Shown in pieces: positions 6,387 to 48,480 of a DNA stretch of 49,988 nt. This DNA is from Candidatus Omnitrophota bacterium. GTDB lineage: Bacteria > Omnitrophota > Gorgyraeia > Gorgyraeales > Gorgyraeaceae. The stretch is from positions 1 to 49,988 of the forward strand of contig JAPLMD010000066.1 of NCBI GenBank assembly GCA_026387235.1, written 5' to 3'. The notes beneath the pieces were generated by a model. It worked only from the letters and a program-made list of their open reading frames with translations. It had not been told where the DNA came from and made no database searches. A program made the translations under genes and the position numbers. Every line of letters starts with the position of its first letter. Position 1 is the stretch's first letter.

Positions 6387-6427
6387 ACCCCGCCCTTTCT
6401 AAAATTTAAAAAAGGGCGGGGTTTTTT
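6387..6427 (+). terminator. Rho-independent terminator
   Basis: ACCCCGCCCTTT...AAAGGGCGGGGT stem followed by a T-run. Confidence 0.85.
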
Positions 6428-6568
6428 AATGAGGCCACAATTTACGGAACGTAGTGACGTAAATTGTATAGGCCGAATTAATCCCGAGGATGCGACTAAG
6501 AGGAGCATTCGAGGGATCTAATTGAGATTGGCTTCGCCCTGAGGGCTTGGCGCTTCCTCGCAATGACA
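6428..6568. repeat. Cluster of nested palindromic (REP-like) elements
   Basis: ACAATTTACG-GA-AC-GTA-GT-GA-CGTAAATTGT; ATCCC-GA-G..ATGC-GA-CT-AAG-AG-GA-GCAT..C-GA-GGGAT; minus-strand TGTCATTGCGAGG...CAATCTC. Confidence 0.75.
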
Positions 6569-16121: not shown

Positions 16122-16182
16122 GCCCCTCGTCCGCCAAAGTTCTGTGGCGGACTCGGGATCAAATTTTGTTTCACAAAATTTG
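16122..16182 (-). repeat. Family-A palindromic element
   Basis: GCCCCTCG-[TCCGCCA..TGGCGGA]-CTCGGGAT-CAAATTTTGT-TTC-ACAAAATTTG; same shell at 29192, 39018 and 45276. Confidence 0.85.
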
Positions 16183-16193
16183 GGAGGTGTAGA

Positions 16194-16521: not shown

Positions 16522-16562
16522 CCCCCGCCCTTTTTAAAATCTTAAAAAAGGGCGGGGTTTTT
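16522..16562 (+). terminator. Rho-independent terminator (near-identical to 6387-6427)
   Basis: CCCCGCCCTTTTT..AAAAAGGGCGGGG followed by TTTTT. Confidence 0.85.
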
Positions 16563-16567
16563 ATTTC

Positions 16568-16605: not shown

Positions 16606-18543
16606 ATGGATGAATTTAAAATCACATTTTTTCCGGAACATAAGTCTGTTTCAGTAGATAGAGGAACAGATCTTTTGACAGCTGCGCTGAAGACAGGCGT
16701 GCATATATATAATAGCTGCGGAGGAGAGGGTGTGTGCGGCAGGTGCAAGGTAATAGTAAAAAAAGGCGATTATATAACAGAAGGCAGCGGAAGGGTTTCC
16801 GATGCGGAACGGAATGAAGGATATGTGCTTGCCTGCAGGACTTCTCCTGGATCAGACATGGAAGTTTTTGTGCCGGAGGAATCCAGGCTGGGAGACCTTG
16901 AGATACTTACGGAAGAGATAAAGGCGAAGCGCCTGGCAGGACTTTATACGCCTGTCGAAGAAATAGAAGAAGAGCATTACAAAGTCACTTCAAAGATTTT
17001 CAAGCATGGTCCGTTATCCACAAAAATATTTTTAAAGCTGCCGAATCCTACGATTGACGATAATTCCGGAGACGCTGACAGGCTTCTCAGAGAGATAAAA
17101 AAACATCATAAAGAAATTAATACAATACAGATGGGGCTTAGCAATATAAAAAGGCTGCCCAGGCTTTTAAGGGAGAGCAATTGGGAAGTTACCGTAACTC
17201 TCGGGAATAGGAATAGAACTACTGAGGTGGTGTTGATAGAGCCAGGTGACAGGTCTAAAGAAAATTTTGGAGTAGCTGTGGACGTAGGCACAACTACTAT
17301 AGTCGCTTATTTAGTAGACCTGAATTCGCAGAAAGTGCTTGGTTCAAAAGCAAGTTATAACCCGCAGGTGGATTTCGGAGAAGATGTAATTTCCAGGATT
17401 ATCTTTGCTCAGCATGAAAAAGGCCTCGAAAAACTGCATCACGCAGTCATAGATACAATAAACACCCTTATAGATAATCTTATAAAAGAAGCAAGTCTTA
17501 CGCTGGATGATGTAACAGCTGTTGTTTCTGCAGGGAATACCACAATGACTCACCTGCTTTTAAAAATAGACCCTGCGAATATAAGAAAAGACCCGTACAT
17601 CCCTGCTGTAAATTTCATGCCGGTAATAAGAGCCAGCGAAGCAGGCATAAAAATAAATCCCAGAGGCCTATTAATGTGCCTTCCATGCATAGGAAGCTAT
17701 GTAGGCGGGGATATAATAGCAGGCGTTCTTGCGTCAGGCATGGATAAAACCAGAGATCTCTCGCTTTTTATAGATTTAGGCACAAACGGCGAAGTTGCGC
17801 TAGGAAACAAAGAATGGCTGATGTCTTGTTCTACATCAGCAGGCCCATGTTTTGAAGGCGGAGGCCTCAAGTGCGGGGTACGAGCTATGAAGGGCGCTAT
17901 CCAGAATATTTCTATAAAAAATAATTCTCTTGAAATACAGACCATTGGGAATCTGCCTCCAAAAGGCATATGCGGTTCCGGTATAGTAGATATTGTCAGC
18001 GAATTATTGAAAAATAAAATAATAGACCGGTCCGGAAAAATAAAAGATAATAAAATTTGCCAGGTCAGGGATTGCGACGGTATAAAAGAGCTTGTATTGG
18101 TAGTCGCGGAAGATTCTGCCACGGGCAAGGATATTACCATAGATGAAAATGATATAAAAAATTTAATCCACTCGAAAGGCGCTATCTATACGGGCATAGA
18201 GGTATTGCTGAAAGAATCGGGTTTTGAAAAATCAGACATAAAGCATGTTTTTATCGCAGGCGGGTTGGGTACTGCTTTAAACATTCGCTCGGCAATTAAT
18301 ATAGGGCTTTTGCCCGACCTCCCTGAGAAAAGTTTTGCTTTTCTTGGAAATACTTCAGTAGCAGGCGCAAAGATGTGCCTTTTGTCATATGAGGCAACTG
18401 ATAAAGCAGACGTTATTGCGAATAAAATGACGTATTTGGACTTAAGCACCAATGCCTTATTTATGAATAATTACAGCGCGGCATTATTCCTGCCGCATAC
18501 GGATATAGAGCTGTTCCCAAGCGTGAAGAAATTATTAAGTTAA
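16606..18543 (+). CDS. ASKHA-domain reductive activator of corrinoid protein (RACo/AcsV) with N-terminal [2Fe-2S]
   Basis: SCGGEGVCGRC..LAC, AVDVGTTT, FGEDVISRI, IDLGTNGE, STSAGPCFEG, GICGSG; adjacent to cooC and acsDE. Confidence 0.92.
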   Translation: MDEFKITFFPEHKSVSVDRGTDLLTAALKTGVHIYNSCGGEGVCGRCKVIVKKGDYITEGSGRVSDAERNEGYVLACRTSPGSDMEVFVPEESRLGDLEILTEEIKAKRLAGLYTPVEEIEEEHYKVTSKIFKHGPLSTKIFLKLPNPTIDDNSGDADRLLREIKKHHKEINTIQMGLSNIKRLPRLLRESNWEVTVTLGNRNRTTEVVLIEPGDRSKENFGVAVDVGTTTIVAYLVDLNSQKVLGSKASYNPQVDFGEDVISRIIFAQHEKGLEKLHHAVIDTINTLIDNLIKEASLTLDDVTAVVSAGNTTMTHLLLKIDPANIRKDPYIPAVNFMPVIRASEAGIKINPRGLLMCLPCIGSYVGGDIIAGVLASGMDKTRDLSLFIDLGTNGEVALGNKEWLMSCSTSAGPCFEGGGLKCGVRAMKGAIQNISIKNNSLEIQTIGNLPPKGICGSGIVDIVSELLKNKIIDRSGKIKDNKICQVRDCDGIKELVLVVAEDSATGKDITIDENDIKNLIHSKGAIYTGIEVLLKESGFEKSDIKHVFIAGGLGTALNIRSAINIGLLPDLPEKSFAFLGNTSVAGAKMCLLSYEATDKADVIANKMTYLDLSTNALFMNNYSAALFLPHTDIELFPSVKKLLS

Positions 18544-18544
18544 T

Positions 18545-18874
18545 TTTTCGGCTCCGGCAGGCCTAAAGAAAAGCCTCGTCGATTCGAGCGGGCATGGTGT
18601 CCTGCAGGCAGGTTGGGACTGTTCGGCACTGAAAGAGTTTCGCCGTGCGCTACGGTTTACGGCTCATTTTTTATACCGAAGGTAGTCTTGACGGTATAAA
18701 AACTTCGCCGTAATTCCTTGCGCACTTAGCATTAAGAATATTATTAATGCCGAAACTTTTCTGAGGTGCCTCAAGCCCCAGCCTGCCTGCAGGACGAGCG
18801 AGAATCGGCGCGGAGCGAAGGACGCCTCGCTGGGGCGTCCGAGCGTCTTTTCGTAGGTCTGTTAGAGCCGAAAA
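18545..18874 (+). repeat. ~330-nt long nested inverted-repeat element (structured RNA or non-autonomous element)
   Basis: TTTTCGGCTC/GAGCCGAAAA ends, 19-bp stem 18599-617/18777-795, inner TTTTTATACCG/CGGTATAAAAA; homolog at 49885-49982. Confidence 0.8.
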
Positions 18875-18894
18875 GAATTGAAAAGGATTTCGAG

Positions 18895-19647
18895 ATGGCG
18901 TATGTTATTGCAGTAGCGGGAAAAGGCGGGGTTGGGAAGACTACGATCTGCGCAATGCTGGTTCAACATCTATTAAAGATAGACAAACCAATCCTTGCTG
19001 TTGACGCTGATCCGAATTCTAATTTAAACGTAGCGCTGGGGTTAGAATATGAGGAAACTATTGCGGACATCAGAGAAGAAGTCAAGAAACAAACTCCGGA
19101 AAGTTTTTCTAAAAGTGAATTTTTTGGCCTTAGACTGGAAGAGGCTGTAGCAGAAGGAAATGGGTTTGACCTTCTGGTTATGGGGAGGCCCGAAGGCCCA
19201 GGCTGTTATTGCGCAGTGAATAATATATTAAGAGAATACCTTGCAAGGATATCCAAGAAGTATAAATTTGTAGTTATTGACAACGAAGCCGGCATGGAGC
19301 ATCTTTCCAGGCGCACGGCAACAGATATAGATTTGCTTCTGCTTATCAGCGATCCTACAATGGTAGGCATTAGCTCTGCTGTAAATGCTTTTAATACCGC
19401 GAAGAGCGCCGGTCTAAAGATAAAAGACATAGTCTTGGTTATAAATAAATCAAAAGGCGGGCTGGAATCGGATAAATTGAAATTGATAGAAAATGCAGGT
19501 TTAAAGATAGGCGGGTATATCTGTTTTCAGGAAGAAATACAAAAGAATAGCGAAAAAGGGAAAGGCGTAGTTGAAGCAGACAGCAATTTGGAGAATATTA
19601 TCGATAGTTTATTTAAACAGGAGGAAAAAATAAATATAATTCCTTAG
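18895..19647 (+). CDS. cooC: CooC/AcsF nickel-insertion ATPase
   Basis: VAGKGGVGKTT, DADPNSN, MGRPEGPGCYC, DNEAGMEHLSR; start reassigned to ATG 18895. Confidence 0.92.
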   Translation: MAYVIAVAGKGGVGKTTICAMLVQHLLKIDKPILAVDADPNSNLNVALGLEYEETIADIREEVKKQTPESFSKSEFFGLRLEEAVAEGNGFDLLVMGRPEGPGCYCAVNNILREYLARISKKYKFVVIDNEAGMEHLSRRTATDIDLLLLISDPTMVGISSAVNAFNTAKSAGLKIKDIVLVINKSKGGLESDKLKLIENAGLKIGGYICFQEEIQKNSEKGKGVVEADSNLENIIDSLFKQEEKINIIP

Positions 19648-29191: not shown

Positions 29192-29272
29192 GCCCTTCGC
29201 CGGCTAAAATGCTCGCTACTCGCTCGCATTTTTTTGACGCTGGCTCAGGATCAAATTTGTTTCACAAATTTG
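29192..29272 (-). repeat. Family-A palindromic element
   Basis: GCCCTTCG-[CCGGCTAAAATGCTCGC..GCTCGCATTTT..GCTGG]-CTCAGGAT-CAAATTTGT-TTC-ACAAATTTG. Confidence 0.85.
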
Positions 29273-29279
29273 GGAGGAT

Positions 29280-38728: not shown

Positions 38729-38802
38729 GCGGGTGTAGTTCAATGGTAGAACACGAGCTTCCCAAGCTCGCAGCGTGGGTTCGATTCCCATCACCCGCTC
38801 CA
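38729..38802 (+). tRNA. tRNA-Gly (anticodon CCC), CCA encoded
   Basis: GCGGGTG/CACCCGC acceptor stem, anticodon arm CGAGC-TTCCCAA-GCTCG, GGTTCGATTCC T-arm, TCCA end. Confidence 0.97.
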
Positions 38803-38813
38803 GAGTATTAAAA

Positions 38814-39175
38814 GGGAATCGAAGGGAGTCCGCTAGATGCGACAGATAGGAGCATCTGTTTAGCGGACGAGTGGCCGACCCGCCGTAGGCGGGCGCCGAT
38901 TCCCATCACCCGCTCCGAATTTTGCGAAGCAAAGTTCGTCCTGAGAATACGACCGAATAGAGAGTATTCGAAGGGCACAAAAGTAGATATTTGATAGAAT
39001 AGCTGATTGATGAGGAGATACTTCGGTAGCTAAAATGCTCGCTTTGCTCGCATTTTTGACGCTACCTCAGTACCAAATTTCCTTTGGAAATTTGGTTCCC
39101 ATCACCCGCTCCGAATTTTGCGAAGTAAAATTCGTCCCGAGCAACCATGGTCTTTTGTGCATAGTTGCGAGGGAC
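38814..39175. repeat. Two extra tRNA-Gly 3'-end copies interleaved with palindromic elements
   Basis: TTCCCATCACCCGCTCC at 38900-916 and 39096-112; 42-bp direct repeat 38900-941/39096-137 (2 mismatches); family-A elements at 38917-976, 39018-094 and 39113-175. Confidence 0.85.
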
Positions 39176-45275: not shown

Positions 45276-45335
45276 GCCCTTGCCTGCCACAGAAACAATG
45301 GCTGCTCGGGATTAAATTTTGTTTCACAAAATTTG
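45276..45335 (-). repeat. Family-A palindromic element (degenerate)
   Basis: GCCCTTG-[CCTGCCA..TGGCTG]-CTCGGGAT-TAAATTTTGT-TTC-ACAAAATTTG. Confidence 0.8.
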
Positions 45336-45344
45336 GGAGATTCT

Positions 45345-47774: not shown

Positions 47775-48480
47775 AGACCGCTTAAAAAAACTTAAAATTT
47801 TTGAAAAATCCACAGGATATAGTTTTAGAAATAAAGTTTTGCTGAACCAGGCGTTTACGCATAAATCCTATGCAAACGAGAAAAAACTGGAACGTTCTAG
47901 CGATAACGAAAGACTGGAATTTCTAGGAGATTCTGTGCTCGGCTTAATTATGAGCCATACACTTTATAATGAATGCCCGGGCGATGATGAAGGCGTTCTT
48001 ACGCGTTATAAATCTCAGCTGGTGAGCGGAGAAACTCTTGGCAGGATAGCAAAGGAACTGGAAATAGGCGAATATCTGTTGCTCGGCAAAGGAGAAGAGG
48101 CTTCGGGAGGAAGAAAACACGTATCAAATCTTATGTGCGCAATGGAAGCCATCATAGGCGCCATTTTCTTAGACGGAGGATTAAAGGCTTCTTATGCTTT
48201 TATAAGCAGGATTTTTAGGCCTGAGATACAGCTCGTAAAAGAAGGCAAGGGGTCGAAGGATTATAAATCAGTATTTCAACAGATAGTGCTTAGAAAATTC
48301 AAAACCACCCCTACTTATAGAATTCTATCGGAAATAGGCCCTGACCATAAAAAACATTTTATTGTGGAAGCGATAGTAGCAGGCAAGAGATGCGGGATAG
48401 GATCTGGCCCGAATAAAAAAAGCGCAGAACAGATATCTGCCAAGGAAGCTATTTCTGCGCTGGAATCAGAAAACGGCTAG
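47755..48480 (+). CDS. rnc: Ribonuclease III
   Basis: NERLEFLGDSVL, EAIIGAIFLD, dsRBD (DYKS..GPDH..KKSAEQ). Confidence 0.96.
   Translation: MNLKKDKDRLKKLKIFEKSTGYSFRNKVLLNQAFTHKSYANEKKLERSSDNERLEFLGDSVLGLIMSHTLYNECPGDDEGVLTRYKSQLVSGETLGRIAKELEIGEYLLLGKGEEASGGRKHVSNLMCAMEAIIGAIFLDGGLKASYAFISRIFRPEIQLVKEGKGSKDYKSVFQQIVLRKFKTTPTYRILSEIGPDHKKHFIVEAIVAGKRCGIGSGPNKKSAEQISAKEAISALESENG

Follow-up and report, generated by a model that had tools for sequence, protein, structure and literature searches.

The window, the whole stretch of 49,988 nucleotides that was analysed, belongs to a Candidatus Omnitrophota bacterium whose genome is called G000 below (1.50 Mb, 69 contigs, 95% complete); C stands for a contig and L for an extracted locus. 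On the + strand of the window the gene for RACo, the reductive activator of the corrinoid Fe-S protein, precedes a gene for a CooC/AcsF-type P-loop ATPase, 3' of which Pfam identifies CdhD (acsD) and then a pterin-binding, acsE-like gene. The spacer between the RACo stop codon and the cooC start codon is occupied by a rod-like palindromic element of 330 nt, with a GC content of 0.53 against 0.41 for the genome. Its borders lie where the first-pass annotation of this DNA had placed them: the 5' border is 1 nt past the RACo stop and the 3' border is 20 nt short of the cooC ATG, both flanking reading frames bearing Pfam domains. The ribosome site of cooC, AAAGGA, is outside the stem of the element. 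The genes and the parts of the element are the following.

16606-18543, + strand: RACo (Pfam Fer2, RACo_linker, Raco_middle and RACo_C_ter)
18545-18874, + strand: the rod-like palindromic element, 330 nt
18545-18555, + strand: left arm of the basal stem, TTTTCGGCTCC, pairing with 18862-18874 in the minimum free energy (MFE) fold
18556-18602, + strand: left arm of the outer module, including the unpaired GAGCGGGCAnGGTG; nearly invariant in 19 copies from 8 genomes
18599-18620, + strand: left arm of the hypervariable stem, pairing with 18774-18795; inverted repeat I10, 91% complementary
18610-18785, + strand: core hairpin module of about 180 nt, found standing alone elsewhere with an nhmmer profile
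18729-18751, + strand: side hairpin GCATTAA...TTAATGC of the MFE fold, an optional sub-module
18792-18861, + strand: right arm of the outer module, which occurs without the core at C22, C41, C57, C18 and C69
18820-18840, + strand: side hairpin GGACGCCTC-GCT-GGGGCGTCC of the MFE fold, in the right outer arm
18862-18874, + strand: right arm of the basal stem, ..AGAGCCGAAAA, in the MFE fold
18895-19647, + strand: CooC/AcsF-type P-loop ATPase, downstream of the element (Pfam CbiA, AAA_31 and others)

Folded as RNA, the + strand of the element reaches an MFE of -178.4 kcal/mol, while dinucleotide shuffles (n = 100) have a mean of -110.6 and a standard deviation of 4.7 (z -14.3), and 0/100 of them attain the energy of the element. 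The nested stems and both side hairpins that had been read from the letters are all found in the sequence and in this fold. The - strand folds at -155.7 kcal/mol (z -11.1), likewise far beyond chance, and the + strand of the window copy is about 21-22.7 kcal/mol the more stable of the two. No terminator-like site was found at the element, and hence its transcription within the acs mRNA is plausible as far as the sequence can tell. A terminator-like palindrome, CCCCGCCCTTT..AAAGGGCGGGGTTTTT, occurs elsewhere in the window in two copies, at 6388-6428 and at 16523-16563, the latter just 5' of a promoter-like site and of RACo.

Search of G000 with the element as query returned 42 BLAST pieces, spread over 25 of the 69 contigs, and the repeat is where 17 contig ends break off. 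An nhmmer profile of the core detected 29 loci, of which 27 are substantial; on a crude ORF map all 27 are intergenic, often at 2-20 nt from a stop codon. A profile search for the outer module gave 17 left arms, 6 of them weak, and 7 right arms. The family has no coding capacity, the only ORFs across its copies being spurious frames of 90-93 aa within the repeat. The core (query 62-244) stands alone at C35:2299, C40, C65 and C52:36204, and in the five core-less copies listed above the outer module (query 12-58 and 248-317) carries a small apical hairpin instead. The closest paralogs are at C50:215-507 (95% identity over query 12-301), C42 (95%, core) and C52:36202 (94%, core); the remaining copies of G000 are at most 87% identical to the window element. 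The C50 paralog sits between rplQ and aspC, antisense to these neighbouring genes, and the core of the C42 copy is inverted, the one such case in G000. Another family member lies in the window itself, at the contig end (49854-49955), and in it an outer inverted end, TTTCAATGTTAGGTTAC, precedes a 67-nt module that recurs at about 10 other loci; the assembly breaks there.

Outside this genome, the element DNA matched 23 of the 41 searched genomes, G000 counted, among them 11 of the 12 congeners and, at family level, 19 of 24 genomes. Composite copies (query 12-317) were found at 74-90% identity in seven congeners. The exact core pattern occurred in 38 stretches of a species-level genome collection, 34 of them labelled Candidatus Omnitrophota or Omnitrophica, and an exact 27-mer of the outer module in 84 metagenome stretches. 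Viral contigs gave 0 matches to the core and outer patterns, which leaves a phage vector without support. A literature search, supplements aside, found no paper describing such a repeat from Omnitrophota (Omnitrophica), be it as a MITE, a REPIN, a palindromic repeat or an insertion sequence.

The copies are built of modules placed one within the other. In the C22 copy the outer ends enclose a second outer variant, which encloses the outer module and this a small hairpin; at C4:8756 the outer ends enclose the second variant and then the core; at L054 and others the order is outer ends, outer module and core; at C40 the core follows directly upon the outer ends; and in the window copy the outer module encloses the core. 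An extra hairpin module is found in the right arm of C50 and in that of five relatives, and the GCATTAA...TTAATGC hairpin is present in some copies and missing in others (alignment columns 189-210). The stems between modules vary among copies in both sequence and length, the two arms being always complementary. The same holds for the basal stem (helix 1), whose sequence varies among copies with its arms always complementary, and which in the window copy is similar to that of the outer-only copies C22 and C57. Copies without transposon ends have flanks that are palindromic and not directly repeated. The polarity of the core relative to the outer module is fixed in 57/57 metagenome copies having both, and the outer arms lie at most 387 nt apart, so that the composite is a unit. 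The core is missing from 23 of 80 metagenome occurrences of the outer module, and these core-less forms are probably deletions. Among the same 80 occurrences no gene lies between the outer-module arms and no gene-bearing parent of the composite was seen.

Comparison of orthologous sites indicates how copies come and change. The 3' end of RACo was found in 10 of the 12 congeners, the remaining two genomes being 79% and 61% complete. With 30 nt of each gene included, the RACo-cooC segment is 72-178 nt long in those 10 congeners versus 413 nt in G000. RACo and cooC, whose adjacency in relatives the first-pass annotation had named as a point to check, are thus adjacent without the element in 10/10 congeners with the locus, which implies insertion in the lineage of the window. 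The spacer of some congeners contains unrelated small perfect hairpins, at L047 (G002, a 54-bp palindrome), L050 (G006, TGTAGGGGACAG..CTGTCCCCTACA) and L046 (G011); the RACo-cooC spacer is a hot spot for palindromic DNA. The rplQ-aspC spacer holds a family copy also in G010, G011 and G005, four species with G000. Of the G010 copies, that at rplQ-aspC shares 90% identity with the window element and that at C52:36204 shares 85%. Since its identity to C50 is 95%, against 90% to the G010 copy, the window copy looks younger than the split of G000 and G010, or homogenised since. G010, G011 and G005 have the rplQ-aspC copy in sense orientation and G000 has it in antisense, and the apex type of the core in G011 and G005 differs from that in G000 and G010 (C50:215-507 compared with L052, L066 and L077). 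The opposite orientations imply flipping in place and, together with the differing apex types, exchange with other copies. At the C52:36204 site the spacer is 3 nt in G003 and 39 nt in G012, a core is present in G000 and G010, and G004 and G008 have the outer module, with or without core, between different flanks; such varied content points to at least two independent hits. At the C35:2296 site other short sequences occur in G012 and G002, and family copies in at least G011, G009 and G006. These site comparisons show that gene junctions are hot spots for the family. On the origin of the palindromic flanks the C52:36204 and C35:2296 comparisons are ambiguous, because the spacers diverge too fast between species.

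Full-length copies in relatives extend to inverted ends of about 25 bp, TGTAATACTTTCAATGATAGGTAAC ... GTTACCTATCTATTCAAATAGTACA (TGT...ACA, with a TGTAAT start), and are bordered by direct repeats of 12-18 bp, often with one mismatch, at L056 (17 bp), L058, L060, L069, L079 (18 bp, perfect), L082 and L087. In G000, C22 has a perfect 16-bp target duplication, and C40 a 13-14-bp duplication with one canonical end only. A strict search across the genus for the pattern of the outer inverted ends gave too few sites to pair. Insertion sequences (IS) of the ISTde1 subgroup of the IS1202 family are characterised by 15-17-bp duplications and ends beginning with 5'-TGT (bioRxiv 10.1101/2022.12.17.520857). 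As far as the subgroup is outlined in that preprint, full-length family members have both traits, TGT ends and 15-17-bp duplications, and the window copy has neither. In its stead the window copy ends in an inverted repeat of about 10-11 bp that is absent from most copies, and no target duplication is recognisable around it. The family moves, and its full-length members bear the transposition signature of the IS1202 family, ISTde1 subgroup, as that source defines it.

A candidate for the transposing enzyme was sought in the same genomes. The NCBIfam model ISNCY_2 detected transposases above its cut-off in 9 of the 41 searched genomes, including the congeners G001 and G002; in G000 (95% complete) no ISNCY_2, DDE_Tnp_1, rve or TnpB transposase was found. 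Two insertion sequences of the IS1202 family, at G001:C26 and G032:C3, end in TGT...ACA and lie between perfect 16-bp duplications. The inverted ends of the two show no more than a loose likeness to the repeat's, and the ends of the repeat had no match at 10 ISNCY_2 loci with up to 7 mismatches in 25 positions. Both elements (L139 865-2320 and L135 1357-2789, respectively) look intact, are about 1.45 kb long and carry doubled AATGTCCTA motifs in each end. Hence, by the published outline of the subgroup, the family resembles ISTde1-type MITEs in that its full-length members are short and gene-less, with TGT inverted ends and 15-17-bp duplications, and in that congeners harbour ISNCY_2/IS1202-type elements with ends of this kind (TGT...ACA) and 16-bp duplications. 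It differs in that the window copy has no such ends or duplication, in that no IS with matching ends was found, and in that its interior is made of conserved, nested and co-varying hairpins that are better conserved than the ends and are no random IS remnant. The suggestion of a MITE-like element made on first reading is supported, the element being multi-copy, dispersed, non-coding, strictly intergenic and absent at this site from the congeners; the inverted ends and direct repeats are seen at full-length copies, whereas the window copy lacks them.

Covariation was analysed in an alignment of 19 composite copies from 8 genomes, from which copies with the extra right-arm module and truncated copies were excluded. 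The fold of the window copy is kept in 90.1% of the alignment cells, versus 35-45% when the partners are slid by 1-3 columns, and both sides have changed in 56 of 122 pairs, versus 13-23 in the slid controls; 0/500 shuffles reached any of five covariation measures. The hypervariable stem (helix 5) has both sides changed in 14 of its 17 pairs and is always complementary, and the GGACGCCTC-GCT-GGGGCGTCC hairpin (helix 13) in 3 of 9. In a set of 46 core copies, 11 of 35 predicted pairs show at least two Watson-Crick types. Unpaired outer-module stretches, GAGCGGGCAnGGTG among them, are nearly invariant across the 8 genomes, and the inner modules are better conserved than the transposon ends. Invariant loops combined with co-varying stems are the classic signature of a functional structured nucleic acid.

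This signature would fit a functional structured RNA, either a processing or stability element or a non-coding RNA family, that acts on host mRNAs and whose acs copy would tune or uncouple RACo and cooC. Besides the strong pairing and the nearly invariant internal loops, this explanation draws on the 22.7 kcal/mol in favour of the + strand, on a location that is probably inside an mRNA, to judge from the lack of a terminator, and on an excess of G.U cells in the query strand (98 in 41 pairs, versus 48 A.C cells in 25 pairs), counts that rest on a structure taken from the RNA fold of the query strand, which favours G.U. It also draws on orientation, composites between co-directional genes in the relatives being 16 sense and 3 antisense (40 loci, some orthologous). 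However, the bias was unconfirmed in two other samples, with 2 sense and 4 antisense composites in G000 and 13 and 8 at 42 distinct metagenome sites (24 and 14 with one-sided cases). Core-only copies are 1 sense and 4 antisense, and all G000 cores between co-directional genes 2 and 7. Of 34 copies between co-directional genes, no more than 21 fold more stably on the sense strand. The strand asymmetry of the window copy is common to L052, which is sense, and to C50, which is antisense, and is hence inherited. Accordingly, the claim that mismatches are G.T on the + strand, as they should be if this strand folds, is correct for the window copy, with 8 G.U pairs in the + strand fold and 2 in the - strand fold, and does not hold as a strand signal, the antisense C50 keeping the G.U-rich strand. 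Moreover, the same operon lacks the element in all the congeners with the locus, the rplQ-aspC copy is inverted between species, and the arms of a palindrome can co-vary by conversion at the DNA level: changes at the centre of an unrelated 52-bp REP palindrome of G000, in about 24 copies, are compensated in the same way. Scanned against Rfam at a permissive threshold, 18300-19100 yielded no family match, its best hit being one of 17 bits (E = 2.5) to an animal lncRNA fragment, and a scan of the paralog locus yielded no match, which agrees with the earlier remark that no known riboswitch or non-coding RNA is recognisable. The element shares with the Rfam riboswitch and non-coding RNA families its structure, conserved loops and co-varying stems, and departs from them in being multi-copy and independent of the locus. 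A riboswitch was rejected because the element is multi-copy and missing from the same operon in congeners. Pairing, we conclude, is kept up in the DNA or on either strand, and its explanation requires no function in the mRNA. The proposal of an undescribed structured RNA is not supported by the counts of orientation and strand stability, and a functional RNA acting on host mRNAs is very improbable.

A different origin is offered by REPIN-like modules mobilised as folded single-stranded DNA by a RAYT-like HUH (Y1) transposase, whose preference for the apices of existing hairpins would explain both the onion-like nesting and the copy-specific palindromic flanks. G000 has three Y1_Tnp matches above the Pfam cut-off (proteins of 197, 242 and 474 aa), for which the best NCBIfam model is the REP-associated tyrosine transposase, and one of the genes is bracketed by its own 52-bp perfect palindrome, that of the 24 or so copies. 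The occurrence of modules within one another in many combinations, the palindromic, not directly repeated flanks of copies without transposon ends and the unrelated small perfect hairpins in the RACo-cooC spacer of relatives are as such an enzyme would leave them. Against it, none of the three genes is flanked by a piece of the element, C56 and C45 having no BLAST match and C62 a sole match about 23 kb from its RAYT-like gene; the NCBIfam REP_Tyr_transpos scores are 52-65 bits, below the cut-off of 80; the fixed polarity of the core, 57/57, argues against repeated independent insertions; and the comparisons of filled and empty sites are ambiguous. REPINs are roughly 100 nt long, and the elements are 2-3 times longer. 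Like REPINs and REP-BIMEs the family is intergenic, hairpin-forming, multi-copy and persistent in its lineage, its module mosaic recalls BIMEs, and both RAYT-like genes and a genuine REP family occur in the genome; unlike them the element flanks no RAYT gene and measures 180-400 nt, and some members of the family have DDE-type ends and target duplications. Mobilisation by a RAYT-like enzyme is hence quite unlikely. An assembly artefact, in which the repeat would have been collapsed or mis-joined into the spacer, could be suspected from the 17 contig ends that break in the family and from a contig depth of 100-300 inside the element versus 3-9 in the flanks (four DNA runs). Yet the window contig crosses the element with unique genes on either side, and contigs of other studies run with few differences from RACo into the left arm to 18584 (X3 record 11, X4 record 18) and from 18882 into cooC (X3 record 15, X4 record 18), an X1 contig covering 18804-19500. 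In the four DNA runs no contig bridges the spacer without the element, the interior being swamped by other copies. X4 record 18 joins 18584 to 18882 via 55 other letters with opposite-strand joints, as a short variant or a graph artefact. The probability of an artefact is practically negligible.

As to the RAYT-like genes themselves, the one bracketed by the palindrome encodes the 242-aa protein (G000:C62:44848-45583; L131 1234-2000), and in the palindrome, GTCCACCTGCCAGGTGAGCC..GGCTCACCTGGCAGGTGGAC, the central base pair co-varies (C-G, T-A, A-T) and the loop length varies. At G000:C45 (L132 538-1962, - strand) about 290 aa follow the Y1_Tnp/RAYT-like domain as a C-terminal extension, in which a hydrophobic stretch is predicted; the fusion makes up the 474-aa protein.

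The rod between RACo and cooC is then very probably a non-coding copy of a dispersed family of nested palindromic repeats of Candidatus Omnitrophota, that is, mobile DNA rather than a dedicated acs device; none of the evidence establishes a switch or an RNA gene tailored to that operon. The window copy consists of the core of about 180 nt placed in the apex of the conserved outer module and closed by the 11-bp basal stem. Its source was likely a copy like that at rplQ-aspC, which is 95% identical. Processes that act on long inverted repeats as DNA would have reshuffled and inverted the inner modules while preserving their self-complementarity. Template switching would be one of them, and recombination or gene conversion, whether of one arm with the other or among copies, another; processes of this kind would yield perfect-looking covariation without selection on RNA. 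Because the window copy has no transposon ends, its arrival is ascribed to such recombination or to insertion into a small pre-existing hairpin.

Once in place, the element is probably co-transcribed as a passenger of the RACo-cooC-acsD-acsE mRNA, in which it would fold into a long imperfect duplex. RNase III of G000, whose gene is at 47800-48459 of the window, may cut this duplex, and the cooC ribosome site would stay free. Correia elements (NEMIS/CREE) of Neisseria and ERIC/IRU sequences of enterobacteria are transposon-derived inverted repeats of about 100-160 bp that form single hairpins and are co-transcribed in operons, where RNase III can cut the RNA hairpin and mRNA stability can change as a result. 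By analogy, the element may work at its locus as they do, through a hairpin cut by RNase III that affects mRNA stability. It differs from them in being nested and not a single hairpin, the comparison being with their general description.

A broader interpretation, which we regard as unlikely, is that the core and outer modules represent a class of self-nesting hairpins which, folded as single strands, either enter the apices of hairpins or build them. If this were true, a RAYT-like HUH enzyme might drive the insertion, the invariant loops and co-varying stems would have been selected as a recognition structure, and the IS1202-type ends would be only one of several vehicles.

Under the preferred reading, that of a dispersed mobile repeat, a false lead is removed, since a co-varying 330-nt rod in a Wood-Ljungdahl operon turns out to be a genome-wide repeat and no acs regulator. 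The case is also a warning for non-coding RNA discovery, in that palindromic DNA repeats can give near-perfect covariation without a strand-specific RNA signal. Nesting and modules conserved beyond the transposon ends are unusual among prokaryotic MITEs, and the family would be a natural system for studying how small genomes keep, invert and reshuffle long palindromes. It supplies presence/absence and flip markers for strain typing and, together with the other hairpin repeats of G000, accounts for much of the fragmentation of Omnitrophota assemblies. The window also contains smaller repeats distinct from the element, with units of about 35-46 nt bearing a AAATTTTGTTTCACAAAATTT palindrome, plus a TTCCCATCACCCGCTCCGAATTTTGCGAAG unit, at 16139-16186, 29231-29273, 39053-39095, 45305-45339 and 38782-39141.
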